DNA of 64,000 nucleotides, taken from Gammaproteobacteria bacterium. GTDB taxonomy: Bacteria > Pseudomonadota > Gammaproteobacteria > Ga0077536. This document shows positions 18,415-40,704 of the stretch, in pieces; the stretch's first letter is position 1; every line of letters starts with the position of its first letter. A program made the position numbers and the translations under genes. The notes below the pieces were generated by a model that ran no database searches, was not told the origin of the DNA, and worked only from the letters and a program-made list of their open reading frames with translations. Location: contig CAXXLL010000003.1 in NCBI GenBank assembly GCA_963662545.2, forward strand, positions 2,464,001-2,528,000, in the 5' to 3' direction.

Positions 18415-18485
18415 TATTCCGGGCATCCTGCCCCCCACCCTTCGGGCCAGCCTACGGCTGTTCAAAATCGCTCCCGGCGATTTTG
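18415..18485 (+). repeat. 71-bp multi-hairpin insertion element, copy 1
   Basis: Removal restores THVIF-EAL; CCCTTCGGG hairpin and terminal CAAAATCG...CGATTTTG stem. Confidence 0.85.
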
Positions 18486-18500
18486 TGAGGCGCTGGAATT

Positions 18501-18571
18501 GATGGCGCACTTCCCTGTGCGCCACCCTTCGGGCGACCTCCGGTCTTCCAATTTCATTCCCGATGAAATTG
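18501..18571 (+). repeat. 71-bp multi-hairpin insertion element, copy 2
   Basis: GGCGCAC/GTGCGCC stem, CCCTTCGGG hairpin, terminal CAATTTCAT...ATGAAATTG stem. Confidence 0.8.
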
Positions 18572-19376
18572 TCACGGCGTGTTCGTACCGAACAGCACAC
18601 ACCGCGCGCGGGTAACACCGGCCAAGCGGGGCAGGGGCGGTCAGCGTACTGCGCCGATAGATCCGGAGGAGCCGACACCGGCGGAACGCCGCGCTGCCAT
18701 GAGCTTTAAGCACAACGCCTGAAACGAGTCTTCGTCATTGACATCGAGATATTCCCGACTTGCGCGGGGCCGTGCGGATCATCGCCTGCATCGAAAACGC
18801 CGTGATCATCGAGCAGATCCTCAGCCACCTTGACAAGAGAAGTGTCGTGGCCGAATTCTCCCGGCTGCCGCCATGCCGGGCGCCACCCCACACGAGCCTG
18901 TTCGACTGAACCTGGCTGCCCAGTGAGCCACACTCACGGCTGCGATACTGAGCGTCGCGGCAAAGGTGGCAGCTGACCAGAAGGTCGGCACCCAGCGCCG
19001 GCAGTCGCGTGGCCGAGGTCAATTCGGGAGGCGTCATGTCAGTCTGAGGCACTTCATGGCTCAGAGCGACGGCCGAGCGACGAAAGCAAGGAGGGAAAGC
19101 TGCCGAAGAAAGGCCGTTTATACCGCTTACACGTGCGACCGAAGCACGACGAAACTGAGTGGATAGAGATACGGACCTGCAATCCGAATAGATCGTCCTT
19201 TCGCTTTTGCCCACACCCGACGAGATCATCCAATCTCGGCCTTCCGCCATCCCTAGTATTTGCGGAGTTCTACCGAACTCAGTTCGGATCGCGGCCCTCG
19301 CAGCCAGAAGACGTGACAGCCAATGTCACACACGGCAGCGGCGGTCGTTCTGTCCCCAGGCCCGTGAGGGGCGCGA

Positions 19377-20108
19377 TCACGTGCGATAGGCCGGGTCTTC
19401 ACGGTCGAGGTGGCGTAGGAGGGCCTGGAAGCCAACCTCGCCAAAGTTGCGGTCGCCGACGCCTTGCGCTGTCCTGACGGTGTGTTCGACCACGTCCGGC
19501 GGTGGTATGACGAGGTCTCCACCGCCCGCTTGCGCCGCGATCTGGATCTCACATGCGCGTTGGAGGTGGTCCATCAGGGTGTACGCCTCGGTGATCGTGC
19601 GGCCGTGCGTCAACGTGCCGTGGTTACGGAGAAACATCATGCGCTTGTTGCCGAGGTGCTCGACGAAACGCGGCCGCTCCTCAGCTCTGAGACCTGGACC
19701 CTCGTAATCGTGGTAGGCGAACTGTCCATGATACGTGATGCCGAACTGGTTGAGCGGCAGCAGGCCTTCTTTTTGGGCTGAGACGGCGATCCCGGCGACC
19801 GTATGTAAATGCATGACCGAGCCTGCCTCGGGAACGGCATCATAGGTGGTCTTGTGGACGATCCAGCCGGCGGCGTTCGCCTCGCCGGGCGAGGAGCCAA
19901 CGTTGTTGCCATCGCGATCGATCGTCAGCAGCGTGGACGCGGTCACCTCATCGAACAACATGCCAAAAGCGATGAAGAGGAAGCGCTCCGTTTGATCGGG
20001 CAAGCGCGCCGAGAGATGCGTGAAGATCCCATCGTCGAGGTTGCGGCGCGCAAAATCACGGTAGCATGCCGCTAGCTGGAGCCGGGTTTCCCGTTCGTCG
20101 GCAGTCAT
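19377..20108 (-). CDS. Class II aldolase/adducin family protein
   Basis: IFTHLSAR, VMHLHTVAG and LRNHGTLT motifs. Confidence 0.93.
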   Translation of the reverse strand: MTADERETRLQLAACYRDFARRNLDDGIFTHLSARLPDQTERFLFIAFGMLFDEVTASTLLTIDRDGNNVGSSPGEANAAGWIVHKTTYDAVPEAGSVMHLHTVAGIAVSAQKEGLLPLNQFGITYHGQFAYHDYEGPGLRAEERPRFVEHLGNKRMMFLRNHGTLTHGRTITEAYTLMDHLQRACEIQIAAQAGGGDLVIPPPDVVEHTVRTAQGVGDRNFGEVGFQALLRHLDREDPAYRT

Positions 20109-20387
20109 CTCACATCCCTCCTCCCAAAAACAGCCCTGGTCGCAAACCGCCTACCAGCGCCCAAACCGAAGAAATGGAAGGGCGACAGCTCGAACGTCAG
20201 GAAGACGGGCTCGTCCCGTTCGAGGTGCGGCTGCCCATCGTGCTTCCGGCGGCTCCGATCTGGGTGTATTCAGGTCGGCAGTAACGTCGATGGTCGCGCC
20301 GACGGTGACCGACGGCCGACCGCCACGCGCCGCGATCACGTTCCGGTCACCACTGCTGAGATGAATGAGCGCACGCGCTTCATCGCC

Positions 20388-21164
20388 TCAGTCCGTTCCA
20401 AAATAGAAATTCAGCATAGCGTCGGTGACCTCATGCGGACACTCGACAGGCGTCCAGTGTCCACATTCCGTAAGAATGAACATCTCGGCATCGCCGATCG
20501 ATTCCACGAGGCGCTTCACCGCAGCGGGCGGGGCAACCGCATCCTCATCGCCGGTTATGAGGAGTGTCGGGCAGGTTATCGCCGTCAGGTCTGCTGATTG
20601 TGCCGCCGACAAGGCCTCGCAGTTGCGCGCATATCCTTCCGCCGATTGGCGCACCAGCAATTCGCGCACGAAGGCGGCTCGCTCGGAATGGCTGACCTTG
20701 GTTGCCGCGGACGTTGCGACCTGGACGAGCGTGTCGCTGACGGGCCGCATGTCCTCGCTGCGCGCGGTTGCCGCCCGGTCACGAAGGGCTCCACGCGCCG
20801 GCTCGGGAGGCTCGGCGAGCGGACCCAGAAGAACGAGGCTCTTGACGCGCTGGGGCTGCGCTGCGGCAACGTGCTGGCAAACAATCGTGCCCATCGAATG
20901 TCCCGCGAGGTGCGCCGAACTGATACCGCGACTATCCATGAGCGCCACGACATCGGCCACGTGGCTGGCGATCGTGATGTCGCCCTGAGCGGGCGTGAAG
21001 CCCGAGCCTTCGAGGTCGGGCCGGATCACCGTGAAGAAACGGCGCAACGCACCAACCTGAGGTCCCCACACGTTCGCGTTGCCCCCGAGCCCATGCACCA
21101 TAATCAGGGCATCGCCTTCACCGTCCGTCTCGACCGAGTACTCTTTGTCGTTGAGCGATTCCAT
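20388..21164 (-). CDS. Alpha/beta hydrolase (enol-lactonase-like)
   Basis: MVHGLGG, GHSMG, GDEDAVAP and CGHWTPVE motifs. Confidence 0.9.
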   Translation of the reverse strand: MESLNDKEYSVETDGEGDALIMVHGLGGNANVWGPQVGALRRFFTVIRPDLEGSGFTPAQGDITIASHVADVVALMDSRGISSAHLAGHSMGTIVCQHVAAAQPQRVKSLVLLGPLAEPPEPARGALRDRAATARSEDMRPVSDTLVQVATSAATKVSHSERAAFVRELLVRQSAEGYARNCEALSAAQSADLTAITCPTLLITGDEDAVAPPAAVKRLVESIGDAEMFILTECGHWTPVECPHEVTDAMLNFYFGTD

Positions 21165-21397
21165 CTCACCCCCCCAAGCTTCGCATGAGACGTAACAGCG
21201 CATACTTGCAGAATTGGCCGCAGGTGACGAGGGGGTGTCGTCCTGCCCCGACAGCCTGAGGCCACCCGTGCTACTGGATATCAGGCGTGGACGGCCTTTG
21301 GATTCTGGCGCCGAACTCGGCGCTGGCGGCGTTGCCGCGCTTGGAAATAGAACCACTAACGCGTGCGCACGGCGCCTTGCCTAAGAAAATGATATGG

Positions 21398-22777: not shown

Positions 22778-22784
22778 TGATGGC

Positions 22785-23443
22785 TCTGTCGGGCAAAGTT
22801 GGCGATAGGTCTGCTGCTGCTGGCGGCTGCAGGCGCTGCCGTGGAAGACCAGACCACTTCGGCCGGTCCGGACAGCAGGTCGGCAATCGCCGCATTCGAA
22901 ACCGCGTTGGCGGCGCTGGAACGCGACGGCGGCGCGCAGGATCCCGGGCTGACCGAGCTGCTGATCGGTCTGGCCAGGAGCTACGAAGGGGCACGTCGGG
23001 AGAGCGAGGCGTTGCAGGCGTACCGGCGTGCCTGGCATGTCCAGCGCATCAACGTCGGCCTGCACAACCTGCAGCAGGAACCACTCGTCGATGCGATCAT
23101 CACGCTCGAGGCCAGGCGCCACAACTGGGAAGCCGTGGCGGACAGCCATGACTACCTGCTGTGGCTTTACCGCCGCAACTACAGCGACCACGATCCGCGC
23201 TGGCTGCCTGCGGCGAAACGGCTGCGCCGCTGGCACCTCGACGCCTACCGATTACCCACCGGCCGTGAGTTCAGCGACCACCTGGATGCGCAGATCTGGT
23301 TGTACCGAAAAGCCATCGACATCATCGAGACGCACACCGGTGATCGCAGACTCGCGCAGTGTTTCTGGGATGAACGTTGCGCTTTTCCAGAAACCCTTCC
23401 AGATCGAAACCTGCGTAATTCCAATGAACCTCCCGGGCTTTAA
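22785..23443 (+). CDS. Secreted TPR-like protein, copy 2 (5'-truncated)
   Basis: About 595 bp nearly identical to 17585-18178, with a different 3' end. Confidence 0.7.
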
Positions 23444-24007
23444 CCACTGAGCCCCAATATCCTTTCAACCCACGGATGCCAGGCCGCGCCACAGACAGCC
23501 GCGGACGCGCTCGATTTGAACACGCCGATCTCAAGTCAACGACGCATCTCCACCCAACGGACTCGTCATTCCACCTCCGCCTGACCCACGACAATCTCGC
23601 TTCCAGCTTCGTCCCAGGCCTTCGCTTCACAACTGATTAATCGACACATGGGCTTTGTTTTTCTTATACGTCCCGTCACCCGAGCGGCATACTTTTCTGC
23701 ACGTTCAATGTTGGAATGCGTATCGTAACGTTAAACAACGATTTGGCATGGTGACCCTGCCCGGAATTCCTGGTCCAGATCTAAAGTGATAAAAAGATGA
23801 AAAGAGGTGTCAACGGCGGAGCAAAATTAGTCCACCCGGGCGGAGCAAAACCAGTCCACTTAACGTTATGCGGTACGCAGTGTTGGGGGGTTGTCCCGGT
23901 AGTCCATAGGAGGGACCCGCGCTGCTTCGTGTAGCGCTTGCGTTACGCGGAGCGAAGCAGCGTGGGAGGTTCCTGTGGACCCACCGGGTCAACCTTGAGT
24001 TCGGTGG

Positions 24008-24777
24008 TCAAGCAGGCGTATTTGGGGATTTCCGCCGTTTTTGGCTTTGGTTGAGACGATAGCTCTCGCCGTTCATTTCCAGGATATGGACAGGGTGGGT
24101 CAGGCGGTCCAGCAAAGCCCCGGTCAGACGTTCCGAGCCGAATATCTCCGTCCACTCATCGAACGGCAAGTTGGAGGTCACCATGATCGAGCCCCGCCCG
24201 TAGCGCTGGCTGAAGACTTCGAACAGCAGCTCGGCGCCGGTCTTCGAGAGCGGCACGAAGCCGAGTTCGTCGATGATCAGAAGGTGATACTTTGCCAGTT
24301 GCTTCTGCAGGCGCAACAGGCGTTTTTCATCCCTGGCCTCCATCAGTTCATGAACCAGGGCGGCGGCCGTGATGAAGCCGACGGAGAGCCCCTTTTGGCA
24401 GGCCGCCAGACCGAGACCGAGGGCGATATGGGTCTTGCCGGTTCCGCTGTTGCCGAGCGCGATGATATTCTCACGACGCTCTACGTATTCGCATCGCGCC
24501 AACTCCAGAACCAGCATCTTGTTGAGCGAGGCGATGGCCTTGAAGTCGAAGCTGTCGAGGCTTTTGACGGCGGGGAACCTGGCCTGTCTGCTCCGCCGCT
24601 CGACCATGCGGCGCTCACGGTCGATCAGTTCCAACCCGGTCAGACGGACAAGATACCGCACAGGGTCGGCGCCCCGGTGGCGCATTGGCGGGCCAGCTTG
24701 TCGTATTCGCGCAGGAACGTCGGCAGTTTCAGGGTCTTGAGGTGATGGGCCAGCAACACTTGCGGCGTATCGGTCAT
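24008..24777 (-). pseudogene. istB: IS21 helper ATPase IstB with 1-nt deletion near 24675
   Basis: GNSGTGKT Walker A and LIIDELGF Walker B; lacks one base relative to the copy at 45100. Confidence 0.88.
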
Positions 24778-26288
24778 GACGCGCCTCCACCCAACAAGCT
24801 CATATAACTGGCGGCGGCCGTGGTCGCCACGTTGGCCCGAGGCAGGTAGGGATAGATATCCAGGTCGAGTTTGGGCGGGCGTCGCTCGATACGGCACAGC
24901 ACAAGGTGTTTGACGGCGTCGTAGCCGATCGCGCCCAGGCGCAGGGCGTCCTTCACCGCGCCGTGAAGCACCTCGAGATCGAAGGTCTCCAGAAGCCGAA
25001 GGACCTGGACGTATTCCCGCTTGCCGGCCTTGCCCATGCGCGCCTCCAGGAGACGGCGCAGGGTTGGGAAGGCATCAGGCAGTTCCCATCCGGCTAGCGG
25101 CGCGGCCTGATCCAGGGCACCGATCCTGTGCTCCAGCAAAGGCAGGTAGTGGATCGGATCGAAGACCCTATCTTCCCGGTCGCAGGAACGGGGGTGTCGG
25201 GCAATGATCCCGGCGCCGCAACCGATAACCACCTCGTGGACATAGCCACGGATCCAGACTTCCTGATGGCCGTAGGCGACGGGCACGGAATAGTCATTCG
25301 TCCGGTAGCGCACCAGGGACAGCGAGTTGACCCGCGTGCCCTGCCTGTCGCACGCGTCGAACGGTGCCGGCAGTGGCCTCTTCAACGCTTCGCGGTCACG
25401 CACAAACCGTTCGCCGATGCTCTCGCGGTGGCCGCGCAGGACGTCGTCTTGCCGTTTGCGGCATTGTTCCTCCAGGTAAGCGTTGAAGGCGTCCCAGCTC
25501 GCGAACCGGGGAAGCGGCGTCATGAAGTTCCGTCGGGCGTAGCCAACCACCCCCTCAACATTGCCTTTGTCGTTGCCCTTGCCGGGACGGCCGTAACGGT
25601 CCTCGAAGAGGTAATGGGACTGCAGTCCGCTGAACGCTCGCGTTCGTTGTCGCGTGCCATCCGGCAAGATGCGCGACACCAGGCACTTGTCGTTGTCGTA
25701 GAGAATCGATCGGGGAACACCGCCGAAGAAGGCGAAGGTTCTGTTGTGCCCGTCCAGCCAGGCCTCCGTCGTCGCTGACGGGTAGGCCGCAACGAAGCAG
25801 GCATCGCTGTGGGGAAGTGTCATGACGAAAAAATGCGCCCGATACCTGACGCCGGCGATGATCGCATCCGCCTCGCCAAAGTCCGCTTGAGCATGGCCCG
25901 GAGGATGTGACAACGGCACAAACATCTCACGCCGACGAAGGCGCCGTTCCCGAACGTAATCCTTCACGATGGTCTCTTTGCCCGTGAAGCCATGTTCGTC
26001 GCGAAGGCGCTCGAATATACGCTTCGCCGTGTGGTGCTGCTTACGGTGAACCGTTCGGTCCTCCTCCAGAATACGGTCGATGATATCCGTGAAGGGGGCC
26101 CGTTTCGGGCGTTTCGGTGGCTGGCGTCGCCGATATCCCGGCGGTTCCGAATGCCGCAGCATCTTCCTCACCGTCTCGCGCGCAATGCCAAACCGACTTG
26201 CCGCCTCTCGCTGGCTCAGACCATCAACATGGCAGGCCAGCCGAACGCGCAGATATAGGTCCACGGTGTACATCCTCCCGCCTTCCAT
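24774..26288 (-). CDS. istA: IS21 transposase IstA
   Basis: 504 aa; QADFGE, LYDND and KGNVEGVVGY motifs. Confidence 0.95.
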   Translation of the reverse strand: MEGGRMYTVDLYLRVRLACHVDGLSQREAASRFGIARETVRKMLRHSEPPGYRRRQPPKRPKRAPFTDIIDRILEEDRTVHRKQHHTAKRIFERLRDEHGFTGKETIVKDYVRERRLRRREMFVPLSHPPGHAQADFGEADAIIAGVRYRAHFFVMTLPHSDACFVAAYPSATTEAWLDGHNRTFAFFGGVPRSILYDNDKCLVSRILPDGTRQRTRAFSGLQSHYLFEDRYGRPGKGNDKGNVEGVVGYARRNFMTPLPRFASWDAFNAYLEEQCRKRQDDVLRGHRESIGERFVRDREALKRPLPAPFDACDRQGTRVNSLSLVRYRTNDYSVPVAYGHQEVWIRGYVHEVVIGCGAGIIARHPRSCDREDRVFDPIHYLPLLEHRIGALDQAAPLAGWELPDAFPTLRRLLEARMGKAGKREYVQVLRLLETFDLEVLHGAVKDALRLGAIGYDAVKHLVLCRIERRPPKLDLDIYPYLPRANVATTAAASYMSLLGGGAS

Positions 26289-26387
26289 CTCAAAAAAGAT
26301 CGAAGGCTACAGGTGGCAGAGTTTTACTCCGCCCGCGGCTGGGAAATCCCGCCGCTTCCGTGGACTAATTTGTCACCGCCGTTCTCA

Positions 26388-27277
26388 CTCGCGAACCGGG
26401 GAAGCGGCGTCATGAAGTTCCGTCGGGCGTAGCCAACCACCCCCTCAACATTGCCTTTGTCGTTGCCCTTGCCGGGACGGCCGTAACGGTCCTCGAAGAG
26501 GTAATGGGACTGCAGTCCGCTGAACGCTCGCGTTCGTTGTCGCGTGCCATCCGGCAAGATGCGCGACACCAGGCACTTGTCGTTGTCGTAGAGAATCGAT
26601 CGGGGAACACCGCCGAAGAAGGCGAAGGTTCTGTTGTGCCCGTCCAGCCAGGCCTCCGTCGTCGCTGACGGGTAGGCCGCAACGAAGCAGGCATCGCTGT
26701 GGGGAAGTGTCATGACGAAAAAATGCGCCCGATACTTGACGCCGGCGATGATCGCATCCGCCTCGCCAAAGTCCGCTTGAGCATGGCCCGGAGGATGTGA
26801 CAACGGCACAAACATCTCACGCCGACGAAGGCGCCGTTCCCGAACGTAATCCTTCACGATGGTCTCTTTGCCCGTGAAGCCATGTTCGTCGCGAAGGCGC
26901 TCGAATATACGCTTCGCCGTGTGGTGCTGCTTACGGTGAACCGTTCGGTCCTCCTCCAGAATACGGTCGATGATATCCGTGAAGGGGGCCAGTTTCGGGC
27001 GTTTCGGTGGCTGGCGTCGCCGATATCCCGGCGGTTCCGAATGCCGCAGCATCTTCCTCACCGTCTCGCGCGCAATGCCAAACCGACTTGCCGCCTCTCG
27101 CTGGCTCAGACCATCAACATGGCAGGCCAGCCGAACGCGCAGATATAGGTCCACGGTGTACATCCTCCCGCCTTCCATCTCAAAAAAGATCGAAGGCTAC
27201 AGGTGGCAGAGTTTTACTCCGCCCGCGGCTGGGAAATCCCGCCGCTTCCGTGGACTAATTTGTCACCGCCGTTCTCA
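26388..27277 (-). mobile_element. istA: IS21 copy 2, left end plus truncated istA
   Basis: Same left end and first ~270 codons, cut by the end of copy 1. Confidence 0.92.
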
Positions 27278-27438
27278 GAAACCGGCGCCTGTGTGGAATT
27301 GTATAAGTGCACCCGTCCATCTGCGTCCCCGATGATGTTTCGGTCTAACCAATTCCATGACCACATCCCGGCTCCGATCAACAACAGCCAATAGATGAGA
27401 GACCCCAAAGTCGTGCTCTGCTGATTCGTGGTCGCCAT
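27278..27438 (-). pseudogene. Small membrane protein truncated by IS21
   Basis: Hydrophobic LIYWLLLIGAGMWSW; the frame runs into the IS end. Confidence 0.45.
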
Positions 27439-27584
27439 ACCGCAGGCCCATCGTAATCTACCTGTTCCGGTATCGGTCTATTTCGGCGCTACTTGAGGCG
27501 GGCGGGGGGAAACGGGTTAGTTTAGTTATTCTTTATACCTTAGCTTCGAGAGAAGGATTAAACCAGACCCCACATAAATGCAGA

Positions 27585-27650: not shown

Positions 27651-27859
27651 TCGTCTTTCGATAAACCGCAACGATCTACAACACCTCACAGCAAATCATT
27701 CAGTGACTTAATTCGCAATCGTTGTCGCCTTTCGTTGTCAGTATTTGTGACCGTTTGTATTCAAGTGTCCCATGAGTGTCCCACGGCTACCACGCGGATT
27801 CGGCACACCCCCTCCCCCTACAGCGACGAGGCTTTTGCCCCAGTTGCGGTGCTTAGGCA

Positions 27860-28592
27860 ACATGGCTGAGAGTGCGGCGCTGCTGGTGGACGAGGTCTTT
27901 CCCGAACAGCCAGTACGTCAATGGGTGCTGAGCTTTCCGTATCCATTGCGTTTTTTGTTTGCCAGCCGTCCAGCAATCATGGGCCACGTGCTCGGCATCG
28001 TTTACCGCTGCATTGCCACGCACTTGACTAGTAAGGCGGGGTATTCCTGCACAGTAGCCCGCACTGGCGCGGTCACGTTGATCCAGCGGTTCGGAAGTGC
28101 GTTGAACCTCAATCTTCATTTTCACATGCTCTTTCTTGATGGTGTCTACGTTGATAGCGCAACTGGATCGAGCACCCGATTTCGCTGGGTGAAGGCGCCG
28201 ACGGGTGCTGAGCTGACCCGCCTGACGCACACCATCGCTCAGCGCGTCGGGCGCTTGGATGCGCGCCATCCTTGGCGCGCCCCCTTCGGGCGCACTGCGT
28301 GCGTCCAAATTCACTCCAGGTGAATTTGTCTGGAACGCCAGGGGCTGCTGGTACGTGATGCCGAGAACAGCTATCTGTGCGCGGAGGCCATGGACGTGGG
28401 GTCGTTCGATGAACTCCTGGGTCACTCGATCACGTATCGCATCGCGGTGGGCCCGCACGCCGGCCGTAAGTTGTTCACCCTACAGACACTGCCGGACTGC
28501 AATGACCCGTTCGTTGACCAGGTGGGCAAGGTGGCCGGCTTCTCGCTGCATGCTGGTGTCGCAGCGAGGGCGGACGAACGCAAGAAGTTAGC
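27860..28592 (+). mobile_element. IS91/ISCR transposase internal fragment
   Basis: [24 protein letters not shown]...NLHFHML (HUH)...AGFSLHAGV. Confidence 0.92.
28257..28328 (+). repeat. 72-bp multi-hairpin insertion element, copy 3
   Basis: Removal restores VGRF-LERQG; CCCTTCGGG hairpin and terminal CAAATTCAC...GTGAATTTG stem. Confidence 0.85.
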
Positions 28593-28892: not shown

Positions 28893-28931
28893 CAGTGTGA
28901 TTTCGGATACCGCATCGAAAAGGTGAGATAT

Positions 28932-28972: not shown

Positions 28973-28979
28973 TATGCGC

Positions 28980-31201: not shown

Positions 31202-31906
31202 ATGACTCCGATGGGCCATCCAACCGCTGACTTCGATCGTATCCCTTATTCCAATTACCATGATCCGGATATTTACAACGAAGAACTCAAACGTATTTTC
31301 GAAGGGGATACGTGGTCGTTCCTGGGCCTCGAAGCCGAGATTCCGAACCCGGGTGATTTCCGCAGAACCTTCATCGGCGAAACGCCGATCATCTACAACC
31401 GCGATCGTGATGGCAAAATTCACACCTTCGTCAACCGCTGCTCCCACCGCGGCGCCCTGATTCAGCGCGAGAACTTCGGCAATGTGACGAGCCACATCTG
31501 CCTTTACCACAGCTGGGCCTACGACCTTAACGGCGACCTCATCGGCGTTCCTCACAGGAATGGGGTCGGCGGCAGCCCTGGCATGCCCGACGATTTCGAC
31601 ATGACGTGCCACGGGCTCCGAAAGCTCCGTGTTGACAGCATCAACGGCGTCCTGTTCGCAACCTTTTCGGAGAGCGTCGAGACGTTGGAGGACTATCTCG
31701 GCCCGGCCCACGTCGACCACCTTGACCGGCTGTTTCACAAGCCGGTCAAGGTCCTTGGCTATCAGCGGCAATTCGTCAGGAGCAATTGGAAGGCCTATCT
31801 GGAGAACGTGCGCGATCACTATCACGGTGCTTTGCTGCACGGGTTTCAGAGCACGTTTGGAATCAATCGCTCGACCCACGACTGCGGCTCGATGATGGAT
31901 GTGAAG
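31202..31906 (+). pseudogene. Rieske ring-hydroxylating oxygenase alpha subunit, N-terminal half
   Basis: NRCSHRG...CLYHSW Rieske ligands and ENVRDHYH...LH; cut by ISCR-derived sequence. Confidence 0.9.
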
Positions 31907-32002
31907 GCAGATTGGCATCTCGCGCCCCGAAACCGCCCAACGACGGCCTCGCCGACACACTTCTCCGCCTCCCGCCGGTTTCTCGCACAGACGACGTCTT
32001 TG
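31907..32002 (-). mobile_element. ISCR 3' region fragment
   Basis: Matches 34861-34957, just downstream of the intact IS91 transposase. Confidence 0.85.
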
Positions 32003-32124
32003 CATCGCTGGCCGCCCTTCTTCGATTGCTGGGCTATTAGACAACTAGGCGAATTCCGGCGTCGAGCTCATGCTCGAACGGTTACCGTTAAATTCGGCAT
32101 TGGCATCCGAGGGGGGAACTGCTC

Positions 32125-33168
32125 ATGAAACTTATCAACCGCCGCGGCTTTAGCCGCAAGGTCGCAGGACTAACGGCCGGCGCTCTGTCTTCGTCCACGA
32201 TGCTGGCACAGGCTGCTGATACCGGTGTTGCAGCTGAAAGTAATCGGACGAGTAGCGAAAGCGTGGCTGGAAAGAAAATCCTCTGCGCGTTCGGCACCGA
32301 CATAGATTCGGTTGCAGGCCAGATCGGATCATACGCCGGGGGCGACTCGCCGTCCGATATTCAGCGCGGCATCTTTGCCGGAGAGGTAGGCACGATCCGC
32401 CTGCTGAAGCTTTTCAGGAAATACGATTTGAAGACTAGCTTCTTCATTCCGGGTCATTCCATCGAAACGTTTCCCGATGAGACGAAGCGTATCGTCGACG
32501 AGGGCCACGAGATCGGCGCGCACGGTTACCTGCACGAGAATCCGATAGCCATGAACCCGACGCAGGAAGAGGCCGTGCTGGTGAAGTCAATCGAGCTCAT
32601 CGAAAAGGTGAGTGGAAAGAGCCCGCGCGGATACGTCGCACCGTGGTGGGAGATGTCAGAGGCCACGGCAACGCTCCTGCTGAAGCACGGCTTCGTCTAC
32701 GATCACAGCCAGGGCTACCGGGATTTTCAGCCGTTCTACGCGCGAGTGGGCGATTCGTGGAACGTGATCGACTACTCGAAGAGCGCGGGGGAGTGGATGA
32801 GGCCACTCGAGCACGGCACGGAGATCGATCTCGTCGAGATCGGCGCGAACTGGTACGTCGACGATCTGCCACCGATGATGTTCATGAAGAAAGTGCCGAA
32901 CAGCCACGGCTTCGTCAGCCCGCGGGATATCGAGCTCATGTGGCGCGACCAGTTCGACTGGGTCTATCGCGAGATGGACTATGCCGTCTTTCCGTTCACA
33001 ATCCATCCGGGTATCAGTGGCCGGCCACAGGTGCTGCTCATGCTCGAGCGCCTGATCGACTACATCAACGGGCACGAAGGTGTCGAGTGGGTGACCTTCG
33101 AGGACGTGGCGGCGGATTTCCGACGGCGATTTCCATTCGACGGGGAGAAGCGGCCGGAAGTGATCTGA
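32125..33168 (+). CDS. Polysaccharide deacetylase family protein (PuuE/PgdA-like) with Tat-like leader
   Basis: NRRGFS leader; [24 protein letters not shown] and TIHP motifs. Confidence 0.9.
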
Positions 33169-33256
33169 GCGGCTGTTATACGGCGCGTGACAAGAGATTC
33201 CAAGGATTCCGGGGACAGTTTACTCATCACTCCGTAACGCTACCTAACGACAATTT

Positions 33257-33300
33257 GGGGTCAGAGTAAAAATTGTCATCAGAATCTTCATTCTGACCCC
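33257..33300. repeat. REP-like inverted repeat
   Basis: GGGGTCAGAGT...ATTCTGACCCC, between convergent genes. Confidence 0.65.
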
Positions 33301-33341
33301 AATTATTTTGCCAAATATTACACCGCGATTTCCGGACGTGC

Positions 33342-33990
33342 TTAGCGCTTCTTGCAGCTGATCGATAATCCAGCGCCGCTCGATTCATCAATTGTCGTGG
33401 CCAAATTCGGTTGGGCGTAGGCGTAATCCAGAAACGCCTGCATTCCGTCGAAACCCAGGTGCCGGACGTTGTGAGCCGTGAAACAGCCACCGACGTCGAG
33501 CTTCGGCAGGAGCACCTCCATATATCGCTTGTACCAACGCTTGTCGGCATCGCTGAATACGAAGTCAAATGGTCCCTCGAGCTGATAGACGAGCTCATGG
33601 GCATCGCCAAGCCTCGCATCGATGTAAGGTGCAACTCCGGCCTCTTTGAAATTCGCCAGTGCTTGGCGATGACGGCCTTCGTCAATTTCGATGGTTACGA
33701 GCCTGCCCCCGGTCTTGCTCAAGGCCCACGCGATCCAGATCGACGAATGCCCGGTTGAGGTGCCAATCTCCAATGCGCGTTGGAAATTATTCTCGACGAT
33801 CAGATCATGCAGCACGCGCCCGTCGCTCCATGGGATATTCCAACTCTGCCATTGGTCCCGGCGCGATTCGAGAAACTGGCCCACTCGCGTATCGAGAGCG
33901 GTCTCTTCAGCGCCCGCGCATATACTCACGACCAACGTGTTGACGAGGGCGAGTGCCGGGATTGACTTAACGAGAGTAGCATTTCGGAAT
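33342..33990 (-). CDS. Class I SAM-dependent O-methyltransferase (start uncertain)
   Basis: ALEIGTSTGHS, DFVFSDADK and TAHNV motifs. Confidence 0.85.
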
Positions 33991-34160
33991 ATCGGTCTGT
34001 CCTCCCTGCGGCCCGAGTGAAAAAGGCATGTTGGGATGATTTCGATTTGGAAGGCGTCCTTAGACCCATACAGAAATACCCCAATCCCCAGCATATTATT
34101 AGACAACGCTCCACGAATTAGATACACCAATGTCTCTGTCGTCCCTAACTCATCGTGAAA

Positions 34161-34206
34161 TGGTGGCCAGGGACAGAATCGAACTGTCGACACAGGGATT
34201 TTCAGT
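34161..34206 (-). tRNA. tRNA-Phe(GAA) 3' fragment (att scar)
   Basis: Minus strand ACTGAAAATCCCTGTGTCGACAGTTCGATTCTGTCCCTGGCCACCA; the 5' half is absent. Confidence 0.88.
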
Positions 34207-34624
34207 GATGCTCGGTCGAAATGCTGGAAAATGCTAGGTAATCAAATCAACGTGTTGGATTCAGATTCTTAACCCAGTGGATCACCTAAGTTCACGTTAA
34301 TTTATGGTGGTTTGGAAACAAATTGGAAACGAGTAGCGAAAGAACATGGGATTTATTTGTCCCAATTCGTGAATTGCCACTTTAGCCGCTCAACGGTATG
34401 CCTCCATTTCTGCGTGGTCGGCTGGCATACGGTGTTACCTCTACTATTGATCATGTACGCGATCAGACGAAGACCGAATAGGACATGGCCGTCTTGCAGA
34501 ACTCCTGGCTTAGAACGATATCGCGGTCAAGAGTCGATAAAAAAGAAGGTGCGCGGTCGAGATCTGCCAATGAACATTTGCATTAATCTCTAAGCAGTGC
34601 GTGGCTGAATTTCGGATCTCAAAA

Positions 34625-34754
34625 TCAAGGTTTCAAATTTATTGGGTTGAAGTGATGAGTGCCATCACGATGCAGCTGTTCGATTAATCCAAACTCCCAA
34701 TCGAGATATGCTTGCATCGCCTCCGGCGCTACGTCCATGCCCTCGTACGGCCGT
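34625..34754 (-). pseudogene. Multi-rhodanese sulfurtransferase C-terminal fragment
   Basis: RPYEG...EAMQAYLDWEFGLIEQLHRDGTHHF; starts exactly at the oriIS-like end. Confidence 0.65.
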
Positions 34755-36640
34755 GTATAGATAGCATAAACCACGTGTTGTGTGGCTCGCAGCGGGCAGT
34801 CTTGCCTGATCGGCGTCGGTACCTGCCGTCGGCAGACCACGCCGGCTCGCCCATCAGCGTGCAGATTGGCATCTCGCGCCCCGAAACCGCCCAACGACGG
34901 CCTCGCCGACACACTTCTCCGCCTCCCGCCGGTTTCTCGCACAGACGACGTCTTTGCCGCGCCGCTGACGGCACAGCCCAGTTGAGGTCATCGTGGGGTT
35001 AGCCCGTGTCGTCGAACAGCCCCCGCAGCGGTGGCGCTCGGCACGGCGGTCGTCGGGTGGCTTCAGGCTCACCCCCTTTCACATCCAGATGGGTGAGGAT
35101 CTTCTCGATGACGTCCGGATCCTCGATGCACGCGATGATCCGCACCGCCCCGCCGCACGCCAGGCAGGTCTCGATGTCGATGCCGAAGACCCGCTTCAGG
35201 CGTTGTGCCCAAGTCATCGCAGCGCGGCGTTCGGCGGGCGTGGGCTCCTCCAGATCCGCTGTCGTGGCATGTTGGCCTCCCTTGCCCCGCTTGGCCGGTG
35301 TCACTTGCGCGCGATACTTGCTGTTCGGCGCGAAGACCCCGTGGAAGCGCGTGAGGTTCACCCGCGGCTTGGGCACCAGGGCGGCCAGGCGGGCGATGAA
35401 GTCGATCGGCTCGAATATGATATGCGTCGTGCCGTCACGGTACGGGGTCTTCAGCTGGTATCGGACGTTTCCATTCGGCGTGAGCGACAGTCGCTTTTCC
35501 GCGATCGCCGGCCGACTGATGTATCGACACAGCCGCTCAAGCTTCTGGCGTTCATCCGCCCGCGCCGCCACGCCGGCGTGCAGCGAGAATCCGGCGACCT
35601 TGCCCACCCCGTCATCGAACCGATCGTCGCAACCCGGCAGCGTCTGCAGTGTGAAAACCTTGCGGCCCCGATGTGGACCGAAGGCAATGCGGTACGTGAT
35701 CGACGAACCCAGCAGCTGTTCCATCGGGCCGGCCTCGAAGTCATCGCCGGCCAGGTAGCTGTTCTCCGCATCGCGCTCCAGTAACCCCTGTCGCTCAAGA
35801 TACCGGACGATGCGCCGCGCCAGGGTCTGGGTCAGCTGGGTGAGCTCAGCACTCGTTGGCGCCTTCACCCGGCGGAAGCGCAGTGAACCATCGCGACGCG
35901 CGACGTACACCCCGTCCAGGAACAGCATGTGGAAGTGGACGTTGAGGTTCAGGGCGCTACCAAAACGCTGGATCAAGGTGACCGCACCGGTCTGGGCCGT
36001 CTTACGGGAAAAGCCGGCCTCCTTGATTAGATGCGTGGCGATGCAGCGGTAGACGATGCCGAGCACCCCGCCCATGACCTCGGGGCGGCTCGCGAACAGG
36101 AAGCGTAACGGGTACGGAACACTCAGCACCCACTGGCGTACCGGCTGTTCGGGAAACACCTCGTCGACCAGCAGCGCCGCGCTCTCGGCCATGCGTCGGG
36201 CTCCGCAACTGGGGCAGAAACCGCGGCGTTTGCAGCTGAACGCCACCAGATGCTCGGCATGGCAACTGTCGCAACGCACCCGTAGGAAACCATGCTCGAG
36301 GCGGCCGCACGCGAGGTAGGCCTCGAACTCCTGCTCGACGTACGCCGGCAAAGTCGAACTCCGCGCCGCGAGATGCGCCTTGAGCGCCGGATAGTATTCT
36401 TCAGTGAGTTGATAAAGGAGGGTGCGCTCCGGGCGGTGGCGCGCGTAGACCGGCGCAGCAACGCCCGCACTGGCTTCCCTGCCAGCTCGCAATGGCAACA
36501 TGATCGCGTCCTTGCGAAGTCGTCTTGCGACGTAGCCTAACAGGCGCGGTCATCGCCGTCACCGGACACTCATGGGACACTTGACCACAACTAACAGGGA
36601 ATAATGGCGACAAGTGACAACAAACGTAGATCGCTAAACC
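34755..36640 (-). mobile_element. IS91/ISCR element with intact transposase
   Basis: oriIS-like GTGGTTTATGCTATCTATAC ends at 34755; the upstream boundary is approximate. Confidence 0.8.
34999..36501 (-). CDS. IS91 family (ISCR-type) rolling-circle transposase
   Basis: 500 aa; [10 protein letters not shown] Zn motif, HFH HUH motif, RLCRY single-Tyr motif. Confidence 0.95.
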
Positions 36641-36647
36641 TCTGTTC

Positions 36648-37163
36648 GGTGTTGTCACATTAACCGGCGATTAGGCACAGTGACGGGATGAAAGCGCCCA
36701 ACAGTCAAAATCACCGCCACCGCTTCCCCTCGGAAATCATCCAATACGCCGTCTGGCTCTATCATCGCTTCAGTTTAAGCCTGCGTGATATCGAAGATTT
36801 GCTCGCGGAGCGAGGGATCGAGGTGTCCCATGAGACAGTTCGTCGCTGGTGCACGAAGTTTGGAACCAGATATGCATCCCGGTTAAGAAAACGCAGCAAC
36901 GGATATGGCGGTACCTGGTACATCGATGAGGTGTTCGTCCGGATTGAGGGCAAGCAACGATATCTATACAGAGCCGTCGACCAGGACGGGGACGTCATTG
37001 ATATTCTTGTGCAAAAGAAGCGTGATGCTCGCTCAGCAAAGAAATTCTTCCGCAGGCTAGTTAAGCGGCATGGGGGGACACCAAGGGTACTCGTCACCGA
37101 TAAATTGAGAAGCTATCCACCTGCCGCTAAAGACGTCATGCCCGACTCAACTCACCTCACTGA
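36648..37163 (+). mobile_element. IS6 family element, 3'-truncated
   Basis: HRFPSEIIQYAVWLY, WYIDEVF, YRAVDQDG and VTDKLRSY motifs. Confidence 0.9.
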
Positions 37164-37164
37164 G

Positions 37165-38186
37165 CAAGCCGACGTGTTCGTCCACACCACATCTTCGAGC
37201 CGGAGGCGGCGATCGCGGAGCTACCGGAGCTCGCCGCCGCCGGCCAGCCGTCGATCAAGGTCTTCATGCCGTTCGAGCCGTTCGACGCGGAGATGCCCGG
37301 TTTCCTGCGACTCCTGCGTGGCGCGCGAGACGCGGGAATCCTCGTCGCGATCCACTGCGATGACGCGGCCGCGCTCGAGTTCGCGGCGCAGGAGCTGACG
37401 GGCGCCGGCAAGACCTCGCTCGCACACTACCCAGAGAGCCGCCCCATCATCTCCGAGGTCGTCGCGACGGAACGTGCCCTGGCGATGGCGGAGATCACGG
37501 GGGCGCCGATCTACATCGTCCACCTGTCGGCCGCCAGGGCCCTCGCGGCGGCCGAGGCGGCGCGGTCGCGGTTTCCTGTGTTCGTCGAGACGCGTCCCCT
37601 GTACCTCCACTTCACGGAGGCGAACTACCGCCGGGCCGACGGAGCACTCTTCGTCGGAATGCCACCGATTCGAGGAGCGGACGATCGGGAGGCCATGTGG
37701 GAGGGGCTCGCACGCGGGGCAATCGCCACGCTTGCCACCGACCACGCTCCTTGGACCCGCGAGGAAAAGCTCGACCCGCAACAGACCATCACTTCATTTC
37801 GCCCCGGCGTGAACAATCTCCAGGTAATGCTGCCCATGCTCTTCTCCGAAGGAGTCCACGGGGGAAAGATCTCGCTGCAACGCTTCGTCGAGGTGTCCTC
37901 CACCAACGCGGCAAAGCTCTTCGGGCTATACCCTCGCAAGGGCACCATCGCGCCCGGTTCCGACGCCGACCTCGTGATTTGGGATCCGGACGAGAGAAGA
38001 ACCATCGCCGACTCGGACGTCCTCTCGAAGACCGGGTTCTCGATCTACGCCGGGACGGAGGTCACCGGGTGGCCGCAGATCACGATTCGGCGGGGCGAGG
38101 TGGTCTACGAGGGAGGAGAAGTCGACGCCGAGAAGGGCTCAGGTCGGATCATCTCGCGTTCTCGATTCAAGATCCCTGTCGGTTAG
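37165..38186 (+). pseudogene. Dihydropyrimidinase/hydantoinase, 5'-truncated
   Basis: IKVFM, AIHCDD, YIVHLS, ATDHAP, GLYPRKGTIAPGSDADLVIWD; lacks the N-terminal HxH motif. Confidence 0.88.
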
Positions 38187-38262
38187 ACAGCCGCCAAGTA
38201 CGAGCCGCTCGGCGAGGCAGAATTGCTGAGCCCCGATTCGCCGAATCCGATAGGGTGGATCG

Positions 38263-38500
38263 ATGGGTCGTCAGGGGATCTACCGCTATCTGTTCCTCAG
38301 CAGCGCGCTGGTGGCGCTAGCGGGGCTGCTCGGTTTGCAAGTTCCCGACCCCTCGCTCGTCGGGATCACCGAGGAGCCGTCCCGGATTCTGTTCTACGCG
38401 CTTTCGGCGGTACTGCTGTTGCTCGGGGGACTGACGGCGTCCTTCAGCGGGTCGCTCTTGTGGCTAGCCCGTCGGCGTTCCGGCCCGAGAGCAGACCGAG
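38263..38500 (+). CDS. Small membrane protein (probably truncated)
   Basis: Two hydrophobic segments; overlaps the cupin remnant. Confidence 0.35.
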
Positions 38501-38813
38501 CCATGCTGATCCTTGCCAGCGCCGTGGACGGCGCCCGCAGCTTCGTAGAGGTACCCCGGGGGCCGTGAAGGTTCCGCCGCCCGTCGTCTCTTGGATGACG
38601 CCTTCGAATACGTAGCCCTCCGCTGGGCCGTGGTGCACGTGCGGCGCAAACGTGGATCCCGCCGGACACCGAAACAGAACCGTCCACGAGCCAATCTCTG
38701 GCGAAACGTGCAGCAGTTTCCACTGCACGCCCCCCGTCTGAAATTCCTCGGGGAAATCCTCCCACTCGATCAGGTCGGTCTGCAGGAACTCGCCCTGCAC
38801 TCTGCTCTTCATT
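38500..38813 (-). pseudogene. Cupin (2,4'-dihydroxyacetophenone dioxygenase/ChrR-like), disrupted
   Basis: FAPHVHHGPAEGY; near-identical in protein to 53618-54064; frameshifted and truncated. Confidence 0.8.
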
Positions 38814-38949
38814 GCGCTTGACTCCTCGGATTTTGGGTGGGTTAGCAGTCGCGGCCCTAGCCGGTCTAACCACGCGCCGGATAAGGGTACCACCAGCTCT
38901 AGATCGCGCGTGGCGCGGTAGCGCTTCTCGGGAAAGCCGGTACGTGAGT

Positions 38950-39030
38950 CGCGCCCCGGCCCACAGACCAATCGATAGGACGGGAAGGGCCATTGTCAGA
39001 ACCCGAAAAAACCTCTTAAACTCCCTATCC
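38950..39030 (+). repeat. ~80-bp direct repeat with oriIS-like end, copy 1
   Basis: Matches 39921-40000; ends CTCTTAAACTCCCTATCC. Confidence 0.85.
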
Positions 39031-39057
39031 GCGTGTCGCCAAACGAAGGAGAGCATC

Positions 39058-39888
39058 ATGCCCAAGGTCGAGGCCAACGGGATCAACATCTATTACGAGT
39101 TCATGGGCGAGGGCGAGCCGCTCGCTCTGATCGGCGGCTCGCTCTTCGGGCGGCAGAATTTCGGCTTGGTCTGGGAAGGGCTCGCCAAGGAGTTCAAGCT
39201 GATTAGCTACGATCAGCGGGGCTACGGTCAATCGGATCGCCCGCTCATGCAGTATGACCTCGATCTCTGGGCGGACGATCTGGCGGCACTCCTCGATGCG
39301 CTCGACATCGATCGGGCCCATGTCATGGGCACCTCCGCAGGCGGCATGATCGCGCTCAAATTCGCGGCGAAATATCCGGATCGCTGCATCGGCGTGGTCA
39401 GCGATTGCGCTTTCGCGAAGTGCGACACCATGCGGCGGATCATGTTCCGCACCTGGCGCCATATGGCCCAGACCTGGGGTTGCGGGCCGGAGTTCGCCGA
39501 TCATGTCGTGACTCAGGCGGTCGGTGCCGACTATCTCGATGGCCCGGAAGGGCCCGGCCTGATCGAGATGGTGCGCACGGTGGTCGGGCTCAACTCGGTC
39601 GAGACGGTGGTACAGGCCTGCCTGGCAATGGAGAAAATGGACCTCCGCGAGGACTGCAAGAAGATCAAGAATCCGACGCTTGTGATCACCGCGGCCAAGG
39701 ACATGCTAACCCCGATCCACACCGGCCCGGACGGCGCCGGCGCGCAATGGGTGGTCGACAACGTCCCGGGCTGCGAGGTGATCGTCTACGAGGACATCGG
39801 CCACGCGGACTTGGTGGAGTGTCCGGACAAAACCATCGCGTCGACCATCAAATTCCTGCGCGGCGCGAGGAACAAGCTCGCGGCATAG
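39058..39888 (+). CDS. Alpha/beta hydrolase
   Basis: RBS AAGGAG; YDQRGYG, GTSAGG and IGHADL motifs. Confidence 0.92.
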   Translation: MPKVEANGINIYYEFMGEGEPLALIGGSLFGRQNFGLVWEGLAKEFKLISYDQRGYGQSDRPLMQYDLDLWADDLAALLDALDIDRAHVMGTSAGGMIALKFAAKYPDRCIGVVSDCAFAKCDTMRRIMFRTWRHMAQTWGCGPEFADHVVTQAVGADYLDGPEGPGLIEMVRTVVGLNSVETVVQACLAMEKMDLREDCKKIKNPTLVITAAKDMLTPIHTGPDGAGAQWVVDNVPGCEVIVYEDIGHADLVECPDKTIASTIKFLRGARNKLAA

Positions 39889-39920
39889 TCCAGCTCGGCA
39901 TGGCTGTGCTAGATAAGGGC

Positions 39921-40000
39921 CGCGCCCCGGCCCTCAGACCAATCGATGGGACGGGAAGGGCCATTGTCAGAACCGAAAGAACCTCTTGAATGCCCTATCC
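39921..40000 (+). repeat. ~80-bp direct repeat with oriIS-like end, copy 2
   Basis: Matches 38950-39030; ends CTCTTGAATGCCCTATCC. Confidence 0.85.
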
Positions 40001-40300
40001 TCGCGTGACTGCGCTCGATACTTCCTCGACCGTATTCTGGCGCCCGCGCTCCGAGGCTCTTGGAATCTCACCAGGGACTCGAGGTACGCGGGAGTCGGAT
40101 TCGCGGCTGTTTGAACTCTCACGGGGTGAGGCGGACATTGCGGTTCGAACTGCACAGCCGAACCACCCGGGATGGTCGCCCGATCCATGGCATTCAGCCC
40201 ACCGTTTTGTGTCAGGCGGTCGGTCAGACCTGGTCGGATCACCTTCCGTTGATTGCGCTGGGGAGTGCGGCAGAAGCAGTGATCAGCCATCGGATGATAT

Positions 40301-40371
40301 TACTCCGGGCATCCTGCCCTCTGCCCTTCGGGCCAGCCTTTGGCTGTTCAAAATCGCTCCCGACGATTTTG
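40301..40371 (+). repeat. 71-bp multi-hairpin insertion element, copy 4
   Basis: Close to copy 1 in sequence; removal restores IF-EPLDF. Confidence 0.85.
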
Positions 40372-40629
40372 TCGAGCCGCTGGACTTCATCGCCAGACTC
40401 GTCGCGCGGGTGCCCAAGCCCCGGGTTAACCTAACCCGCTTCCACGCCGCCAGGTAATCTACTTGGGCCCCCAACAGCGCGCATCGTGCGCGGGTGACGC
40501 CTTCCAAGCGCGGCCAGGGCAACACCGCGGGCGCGTCGCATGCGACGGAAAACACCACCCCCGCTGGACGCCGGGTAGCCATGAGCTTTAAGCGCAACGC
40601 CTCAAACGCGTGTTCAACATTGATATTGA

Positions 40630-40704
40630 CAAATCGGCAGGAAAGCCGATTTGCACAGTCGTAGACTGCCGCGAAGCGGGCGGGCACAGGGATGTGCCCG
40701 ATGA
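40630..40704 (-). repeat. 75-bp multi-hairpin insertion element, copy 5 (inverted)
   Basis: Removal restores FNIDI-ETC; same four-stem layout on the minus strand. Confidence 0.82.

Follow-up and report, generated by a model that had tools for sequence, protein, structure and literature searches.

Five short inserts, each folding into a row of hairpins and each set in the remains of one kind of transposase gene, raise the question of what they are, how they came to lie there and what moved them. They are found in a 64-kb stretch of a gammaproteobacterial genome (the window; G000:C3:2464001-2528000, in which G000 is the source genome of 5.58 Mb, 58% G+C and three contigs). A sequence-only reading of the window took them for a non-autonomous single-stranded DNA element that preferentially hits rolling-circle elements of the IS91/ISCR type. 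Here we compare the five copies with their relatives in the source genome and in related genomes. Probably they are members of a widespread group of small mobile DNA elements, non-autonomous ones, which insert without a scar, return to hot spots and are moved as single-stranded DNA or as an extruded hairpin by an enzyme acting in trans, likely of the HUH type.

A family of four-hairpin DNA elements

The five window copies (c1-c5; Table 1) align at 72-75 nt with an invariant CTTCG, a CAA...TTGT terminal palindrome and a mean column identity of 71%. RNAalifold folds this alignment into four hairpins with 24 pairs, 14 of which show compensatory changes. A covariance model (R1) was built from the five copies and their RNAalifold structure. 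On the window, with filters off, R1 recovers exactly these five at 77.1-86.6 bits, while the next best of 33 listed matches reaches 12.9 bits. The places of the inserts, their shared four-hairpin layout and their absence elsewhere in the 64 kb thus stand as first read; only the insert ends had been drawn one base off those of R1, because the junctions have a real one-base ambiguity.

Members of the family are 71-76 nt long, some up to 87 nt, and consist of four consecutive hairpins. The loops of hairpins 1 and 4 contain TCC, and those of hairpins 2 and 3 read C-TNC-G. Between the 5' end and hairpin 1 lie 3-5 nt, and between hairpin 4 and the 3' end 1 nt. The two ends of the element do not pair with each other, and only the four local hairpins form. 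A 9-bp stem closed by a TCCNG loop, the exact form of the terminal hairpin, occurs 40 times in the source genome, compared with 0-2 times for four control loops. In Rfam 15, no family matches the window at gathering thresholds, and the best score below threshold over c1 and c2 is 15.9 bits against a family cut-off of 43.

Covariation was assessed in 73 matches (65 distinct, from 54 loci). Standard pairs fill 92.9% of the pair cells, compared with 68.8% in shuffles and 30-42% with slid partners, a test that is tilted towards structure because the alignment was fitted to R1. Changes on both sides of the stem are seen for 21 of the 24 pairs, in agreement with the first impression that the terminal stems differ in sequence and keep their pairing. 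Among 1517 pair cells, 21 are GT or TG and 29 are AC or CA, with no wobble asymmetry. Such strong Watson-Crick-only pairing, kept on both strands, points to DNA hairpins and not to a one-strand RNA structure with wobble. Hence, the hairpins appear to be selected as DNA structures.

Insertion without target-site duplication

Two copies in the source genome sit within a MITE (miniature inverted-repeat transposable element) of ~165 nt with terminal inverted repeats. Five empty copies of this MITE in two congeners read ...GCCGTAT|TCCCGATACG..., and in three filled copies, two in the source genome and one in a congener, the element lies at exactly this point. The counted insert in the source genome is exactly 72 nt, and no duplicated bases distinguish filled from empty MITE copies beyond a one-base T ambiguity. 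This pair of empty and filled alleles supports the proposal of a mobile element that is non-autonomous and leaves its target unduplicated. The target in the MITE is the 5' edge of a small hairpin loop (CGTAT-TCCCG-ATACG), and this loop equals that of hairpin 4 of the element. Nested insertion into hairpin 4 of sister copies has taken place at least twice. Moreover, downstream of glmS two tandem partial tRNA-Pro copies each carry an 87-nt element in the T-loop (GGATT^CGAACC, strand read). For the window itself, one contig of the public DNA run X4 omits 28257-28329 and has C instead, which corresponds to an empty allele of site b; its shorter side is 35 letters long, which makes it weak evidence.

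Filled and empty alleles can also be compared at site a of the ISCR2-like gene. Empty site-a alleles read TTC (16) or TTT (5), both Phe, and 5 further ones have a Tyr codon; at the filled junctions the C is kept in 0 of 10 alleles. One junction is exact and the other has a variable base (T, G or A). The simplest reading is a target between T and TC (or TG), which fits most junctions and requires the loss of one C at two loci.

Several of these host loci have features of their own. The inverted repeats of the host MITE read CTAGTGTGCTGTCCCGCAATAAAC..., and the two source-genome copies of it that carry the element lie at C3:2237360-2237620 and C3:2354050-2354320. A query containing the MITE has 78 matches in one congener and 67 in the other. 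The sucB-lpdA spacer measures ~245 nt in the source genome and ~10 nt in the congener G002. The locus downstream of glmS (C3:142440-142930) consists of two tandem 205-nt units beside an intact tRNA-Pro(GGG) gene. Other copies in the source genome lie 78-93 nt from tRNA-Gln, tRNA-Arg and tRNA-Ser genes. After in-silico removal of the element from the tRNA-like loci, ARAGORN makes no new tRNA call and reports only the neighbouring intact tRNA genes.

Genomic distribution and target bias

In the source genome R1 has at least 67 matches at E<=1 (the best 150 of 1129 first-look candidates were scored); what follows rests on the 60 best of them (E<=7.7e-4), the 7 weakest being left aside. According to flanks read in three frames, 25 of the 60 lie within ISCR2-like DNA of the IS91 transposase family. 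The other 35 are intergenic, lie in partial tRNA copies near tRNA genes, are nested in other repeats or belong to a 66-nt subfamily. This three-hairpin subfamily accounts for 17 matches at 12 loci, partly in head-to-tail arrays. The remaining 18 are copies between housekeeping genes, 7 of them within 300 nt of a tRNA gene. Outside insertion sequence (IS) genes the copies are mostly intergenic, sometimes as inverted pairs or arrays, and the earlier statement that the element occurs only inside IS91/ISCR genes is true within the window and fails genome-wide. Among 41 genomes of the same genus, family and class (source genome included; at most the 120-150 best candidates scored per genome), 25 have a match at E<=0.001.

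Nevertheless, the concentration in one gene family is pronounced. By automatic overlap, 21 of the 60 best matches fall inside or abut the 20,488 bp of ISCR2-like loci, as opposed to none inside the 213,244 bp of eight other transposase gene sets (IS3, IS21 istA, IS21 istB, IS6, two IS4, IS256 and a 406-aa IS91-family gene). Insertion tolerance in dispensable genes is therefore no explanation. The gene for the 406-aa transposase represents a second IS91 clade (7 loci, 6.9 kb) without any element, so that a preference for rolling-circle elements in general does not explain the pattern either. The bias towards ISCR2-like genes is real and narrow: the targeting of rolling-circle elements put forward by the sequence-only reading holds for these genes but not for the wider group. 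When the 500-aa ISCR2-like protein is compared with its 80 nearest public relatives, mostly canonical ISCR2, only 2 of these carry the element in the gene and 1 carries it upstream. A blastn search of a plasmid collection at the 'distant' setting with c1, c2 and their flank matched 4574 records, and ISVsa3 or IS91-family transposase is annotated under most of the 30 listed; the matches, to ISVsa3/ISCR2 genes, cover only the coding part (query 169-234), and the element was not found at that sensitivity.

The reference for empty sites is the gene at 34999-36501, the only full-length one of its kind in the source genome, which has no R1 match inside. Its 500-aa product is 74% identical to that of canonical ISCR2/ISVsa3 genes of many taxa. 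A tblastn search with this protein finds ~38 further loci in the source genome, all partial or broken. Numbered on its residues, the insertion sites form a set of eight (a, b, c, d, e, e2, f and g; Table 1), most of them directly at a Phe codon.

The 66-nt copies and those in two relatives point to larger units. The 66-nt subfamily retains hairpins 1, 2 and 4, ends in TTTTT and occurs singly or as 2-3 head-to-tail copies (for example C2:1819550-1819748, C2:2528576-2528708 and C3:876765-876895). Its flanks are conserved at the 12 loci (..GCCATGGTTT on one side and CGTTAAATAG.. on the other), and thus the repeated unit exceeds the model match. In two relatives from other genera, G012 and G019 (L175-L177, L183-L188), the element forms the core of a longer repeated unit. 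Conserved sequence precedes it (..CTCTGAATAAGTCC..GGACT..) and follows it (CAGAGTA.., then an A/T-rich hairpin of 14 bp). This repeat is present in at least 6 (G012) and at least 3 (G019) near-identical copies; G019 is a complete genome without any Y1_Tnp match.

Probable repeated insertion at the same sites

The occupied sites could go back to one insertion that was inherited or to many. Site-a elements of different paralogs are 90-100% identical, compared with 51-87% for the flanking coding DNA (ungapped; the G004 row is out of register and ignored), and the flank differences lie mostly at third codon positions. In a maximum-likelihood tree of 32 site-a alleles from +-150-nt flanks, the 8 filled rows need 7 gains or losses, at least 6 of which are forced by well-supported branches; the tree rests on 300 nt, and recombination between paralogs could inflate this count of events, which tells against repeated insertion. 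Filled rows cluster on the tree no more than shuffled labels do (as low a value in 248 of 500 shuffles), and for several filled copies the sister is an empty allele, with 98-99% bootstrap support.

Sequence relationships among the elements lead to the same view. At C2:718038, site a holds a copy with 93% and 90% identity to site-b copies but only 70-73% to other site-a copies. Copies at sites c and f form one subfamily (85-89%), and those at e, e2 and g another (86-94%), save one diverged e2 copy at 74-84%. Since subfamilies span several sites and two of them share site a, the subfamily does not dictate the site. Furthermore, the site combinations found in paralogs, {a,b}, {b,c,e2}, {a,c}, {a,d,e2} and {}, fail the four-gamete test. 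An origin of all inserts from one ancestral event, which the sequence-only reading had named as one outcome that would overturn it, is rejected by the scattered site-a tree, the two subfamilies at site a and the site combinations. Given the scatter on the tree and the two subfamilies at one site, recurrent insertion at hot spots fits better, and short conversion among paralogs may contribute to the spread.

Candidate enzymes

The ends are defined by hairpins, targets are not duplicated, copies nest in the loops of hairpins and the covariation is of the DNA type; the best guess for the mover is therefore a single-strand nuclease of the HUH type, supplied in trans. Insertion is precise and leaves no target-site duplication. 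Movement would proceed via a single-stranded or extruded-hairpin form, and HUH nucleases would be the most likely class for the trans-acting enzyme. The hot spots comprise the eight positions of the ISCR2-like gene, the T-loop of partial tRNAs, the central hairpin loop of the MITE and the terminal hairpin of sister copies.

A number of results weigh against this account. In the source genome no enzyme is tied to the element. None of the five Y1/RAYT-like genes (RAYT, REP-associated tyrosine transposase; REP, repetitive extragenic palindromic sequence) has an element within +-600 nt, and a TnpB-type gene (PF07282) has 0 matches. An orphan terminal hairpin of an autonomous parent was not found there, as all 9-bp TCCNG hairpins but one GC-rich hairpin are those of known copies. 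Across the genomes compared, the element is present in 20 of 26 with a Y1_Tnp match and also in 5 of 15 without, a complete one-contig genome included. IS608-type elements insert into the lagging-strand template and show an orientation bias relative to replication; at 26 non-IS91 loci in the source genome we count 16 versus 10 (a hand count on a small sample, with the origin placed near C3:1.72 Mb and the terminus near C2:1.86 Mb by the switch points of GC skew). A search for guide sequences gives longest identical or complementary words of 4.4-4.7 nt for cognate and 4.3-4.5 nt for non-cognate combinations, with no sign of a guide-like match. Likewise, when the six sense-strand sites are folded as single strands, they are unpaired at 0.27-0.88 and take ranks 1 to 22 of 26 TTC, without a pattern. 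Finally, the sense strand of the intact gene has 26 TTC, with which 5 of the 8 insertion sites coincide, and a 3-nt target alone is therefore insufficient for the hot spots.

The Y1 genes of the source genome are all RAYT-like; one is flanked by GTAG-tagged REPs, two by other inverted repeats and two by none, and the Y1/RAYT gene between the same hairpins that had been suggested as a search target is not among them. In the relatives no adjacency of Y1 genes and elements was seen when match tables were compared by eye. The two RAYT-like genes without flanking repeats have relatives in 19 and 20 of the 41 genomes, and these distinguish genomes with the element from those lacking it no better than the Pfam family.

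Two Y1-like loci are of interest in themselves. A RAYT-like gene of 162 aa (C3:129419-129904, within 129290-129951) is flanked by GTAG-tagged REPs of the GTAGGAGCCCGCTTGCGGGCGAATC type, for which the genome has 40-54 short matches; gene and repeats form an ordinary REP-RAYT pair that is distinct from the four-hairpin family. A 310-aa Y1-like gene (C2:1232513-1233536) lies between inverted repeats of ~30 nt (GGGTGCCGGAGTTGACTTAATTGACTAAA) with 15-18 matches genome-wide and is possibly a separate small mobile family.

Against this background, we hold it possible, though on the unlikely side, that the elements are substrates of an undescribed trans-acting insertion system that reads structure together with a very short sequence. 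The 72-nt unit would then be a scarless cargo delivered to a few exact positions in ISCR2-type transposase genes, tRNA T-loops and hairpin loops, and in effect a dedicated parasite or brake of ISCR elements, which in other settings are major carriers of resistance genes. IS200/IS605 guide pairing and the bridge RNA of IS110 are the solved cases of exact insertion, and both later became useful. The scarless insertion of a 72-nt element without an enzyme of its own at exact sites raises a mechanistic question of a similar kind.

Another candidate is the ISCR2-like Y2 transposase itself, which could move the elements as miniature rolling-circle satellites, with in-cis action on the displaced strand explaining the concentration in its own gene. 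The element is present in 16 of 16 genomes with a Y2_Tnp match and in 9 of 25 without, a co-occurrence that is partly circular because elements ride in Y2 genes and the model was built from such copies. Lack of duplication, a hairpin flush with one end and TTC-containing sites are in line with such a satellite. IS91 targets the tetranucleotide GTTC/CTTG, which the TTC-containing sites recall; most empty sites read NTTC, but the C is kept at none of the 10 filled site-a junctions. A junction with a variable base opposite an exact one would also suit an imprecise termination end. However, the 9 carriers without a Y2_Tnp match speak against it, as do the ends of canonical ISCR2 and of the ISCR2-like IS delimited in G004, which show no likeness to the element; R1 has no match at the ends of 80 ISCR2-type loci. 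The 406-aa IS91 clade has several identical, recently active copies and yet no insert, and intergenic, tRNA-linked and MITE-nested copies are not near Y2 genes. Thus, we consider movement by the Y2 transposase unlikely.

Effects on the transposase genes and inheritance of the inserts

Insertion changes the host gene in ways that depend on the site. At site a the insert is 72 nt, in frame, and brings TAA or TGA three codons before its end in 11 of 11 copies. At site b 2 of 3 copies are stop-free, and at site c 1 of 2 is in frame and stop-free. The 75-nt insert at site d is in frame and stop-free in both complete copies of the source genome, and at sites e, e2 and f the reading frame is shifted. 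The transposase gene is accordingly cut short at a and b, shifted in frame at e, e2 and f, and extended by 24-25 codons at c, d and in some site-b copies.

The window copies illustrate this range. The net insert of c1 is not a multiple of three, and c1 is 90-94% identical to other e-type copies. On its left copy c2 has the site-f junction (EALEL) and on its right the site-a junction (HGVFVPN), with the intervening gene stretch deleted, and it is ~80% identical to a-type and f-type copies alike, the mark of recombination between two direct copies in which the intervening DNA was lost. Direct copies inside one gene thus recombine and delete what separates them, as at c2. An in-frame TGA lies close to the 3' end of c3. 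The open reading frame (ORF) 39990-40457 passes through c4 in frame and without a stop, and the DNA 5' of c4 is non-transposase. Copy c5, 75 nt, in frame and stop-free, adds 25 codons, and its site and orientation recur in two other paralogs of the source genome and in a record of Nitrococcus mobilis. The description of the window as four inserts whose removal restores the reading and a fifth that borders a deletion is therefore only partly apt, given the non-transposase 5' side of c4, the chimeric nature of c2 and the stop-free frames through c4 and c5.

Read-through of this kind invites the view that the inserts are old, vertically inherited intervening sequences that serve the IS, for instance by damping or switching its transposase, are read through or removed ahead of translation, and are kept uniform by concerted evolution. 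The in-frame, stop-free copies at sites c, d and partly b are consistent with it, and in the Nitrococcus mobilis record a 477-codon frame passes through the site-d copy; this gene is itself not intact, since it also has a stop at codon 31. Purifying selection is visible downstream of site a in filled paralogs (identity up to 88% at codon positions 1 and 2 versus 43-53% at position 3), and the same sites are filled in several genera. The elements are the longest near-identical stretches among paralogs, short conversion tracts are plausible, and c2 shows recombination. On the other hand, filled site-a copies are scattered on the tree, each beside an empty relative, two subfamilies occupy one site, and the stops at site a and shifted frames at e, e2 and f do not suit a sequence that is read through. 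The only full-length gene of the source genome lacks the element, the same family is present in intergenic repeats and tRNA-like DNA, the sense strand has no G-U excess, and two sites are antisense to the gene. Such a role is quite improbable. Over 27670-29003 and 40343-40999 the RNA contigs of the runs X15 and X16 have almost no depth and are uninformative on splicing, and the public runs were compared as contigs, in which rare excision products are invisible.

It is very unlikely, too, that a few true insertions spread among paralogs by microhomology template switching or very short gene conversion without a site-specific enzyme: the hot spots do lie in the most conserved coding motifs, with short identical words common to paralogs, and the ~38 ISCR2-like loci are possible donors and recipients, but the flanks of elements that are 99-100% identical diverge already 5-6 nt from the junction on both sides, so that a conversion tract could hardly reach beyond the element, no homologous site could have supplied the b-type copy at site a, and the insertions into the MITE, tRNA-like DNA and sister elements require real transposition.

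Features of the window

Table 1. Transposase genes and elements in the window (nucleotide positions) and insertion sites in the transposase (residues of the 500-aa reference)
Feature	Position	Strand or orientation	Description	Evidence
ISCR2-like transposase gene	34999..36501	-	full-length, 500 aa	Pfam Y2_Tnp 9.2e-37, Zn_Tnp_IS91 4.2e-19
ISCR2-like C-terminal fragment	18573..18912	+	residues 387-431 and 451-499, directly 3' of c2	tblastn
ISCR2-like fragment	27859..28590	+	residues 103-321, hosts c3	tblastn 69% identity; Y2_Tnp on ORF 27772-28323
ISCR2-like fragment	40368..40789	+	residues 362-472, hosts c4 and c5; site a empty (TTC CAC)	tblastn
c1	18415..18486	+	e-type, site e (after ...THVIF, before EP...)	R1 86.6 bits
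c2	18501..18572	+	chimera of sites f and a	R1 80.6 bits
c3	28257..28329	+	b-type, site b (RVGR(F/L)|LERQGLL)	R1 77.1 bits
c4	40301..40372	+	e-type	R1 82.7 bits
c5	40629..40703	-	d-type, antisense at site d (GIDI|ETC)	R1 81.5 bits
Site c	residue 190	sense	NLNVHF / HMLF	
Site b	residue 234	sense	RRIVRY / LERQ	
Site g	residue 305	sense	KVAGF / SLHAG; seen only in relative G011	
Site e	residue 363	sense	THIIF / EP	
Site e2	residue about 367	antisense	EPLD / FIARL	
Site f	residue 368	sense	EPIDF / IARL	
Site a	residue 386	sense	NLTRF / HGVF	
Site d	residue 443	antisense	GIDI / ETC	

The window as a whole is an IS-rich island with transposase genes of IS3, two IS21, IS6, two IS4-type and IS256 (3672-4373, 24008-27178, 36688-37398, 43589-45870, 48370-49716, 50785-52032 and 56464-57810), interspersed with hydrolase, Rieske, monooxygenase and amidohydrolase genes. 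A scan of 30 window ORFs revealed no resistance gene. An exact 97-nt direct repeat is present at 31907-32003 and 34861-34957, one copy of which lies just downstream of the intact transposase gene. Contigs of the public DNA runs X4 and X13 (one per run) join 23379 to 40300, the 5' edge of c4, and one X13 contig joins 35313, within the intact transposase gene, to 40372 on opposite strands. These joints hint at other arrangements around e-type copies in other samples.

Comparison with known systems

REPs are linked to Y1 (RAYT) genes (PMC3333891; PMC8266576), and a REP is a single imperfect palindrome of 20-40 nt with a conserved GTAG or CGTC tag at one end (PMC3733652). Like REPs and REPINs, the element is short, structured, high-copy, non-autonomous and, outside IS genes, mostly intergenic, and it shows compensatory change. 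In contrast, it has four hairpins in 72 nt and no GTAG or CGTC tag in the 73-copy consensus. The RAYT gene at C3:129419-129904 is flanked by its own GTAG REPs and not by the element, and exact recurrent sites in a transposase gene are a trait of the element but not of REPs.

For the IS200/IS605 family, the mechanism used in this comparison is that of IS608. With this family and with palindrome-associated transposable elements (PATEs) the element shares subterminal hairpins at both ends, the absence of target duplication and a short adjacent sequence. As in IS200/IS605, it nests and forms head-to-tail arrays, which is expected if its own end resembles the target. However, the source genome has no TnpA with matching ends and no TnpB. 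Moreover, the conserved target bases of the element lie 3' of the insertion point (^TC) and not 5' as in the IS608 picture, and cleavage would have to take place within 0-4 nt of its hairpin feet, which also departs from that picture.

Rickettsia palindromic elements (RPEs) are small palindromes in protein-coding genes, often in frame and translated (PMC10969869). The window copies c4 and c5, site-c copies and some site-b copies are also read through in frame. By description, RPEs are ~150 bp long and occupy many unrelated metabolic genes of an alphaproteobacterial genus, whereas the element has 72 nt, is gammaproteobacterial and sits in one host gene family at fixed positions, with many stops and frameshifts. 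Miniature or one-ended IS91/ISCR derivatives and non-autonomous Helitrons resemble it in the lack of duplication, the terminal hairpin, TTC-type targets and the co-occurrence with Y2; yet its ends are unlike oriIS and terIS of ISCR2 or the ISCR2-like IS, and 9 genomes have the element without a Y2 match. From MITEs of the terminal-inverted-repeat type it differs in having neither terminal inverted repeats nor a target-site duplication. With no match in Rfam and without the defining features of REPs and MITEs, the element looks unlike the already described REP and MITE families, a match to which, without an IS91 bias, was another outcome named as speaking against the sequence-only reading. A full-text literature search, limited to journals open without subscription, yielded no account of such a hairpin element within transposase genes of the IS91/ISCR type.

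ISCR2-type elements move antibiotic-resistance genes in many bacteria. An element that truncates, frameshifts or lengthens their transposase would be a natural inactivator or modulator of ISCR2-type elements. Furthermore, it breaks the calls of IS91-family transposase genes across a whole bacterial family, and no Rfam model flags it. In its manner the element is most like REPs and REPINs or IS200/IS605-derived miniatures, yet it fails their defining tests. What sets it apart is an unusual habit: within one family of transposase genes it comes back to a small number of fixed positions.

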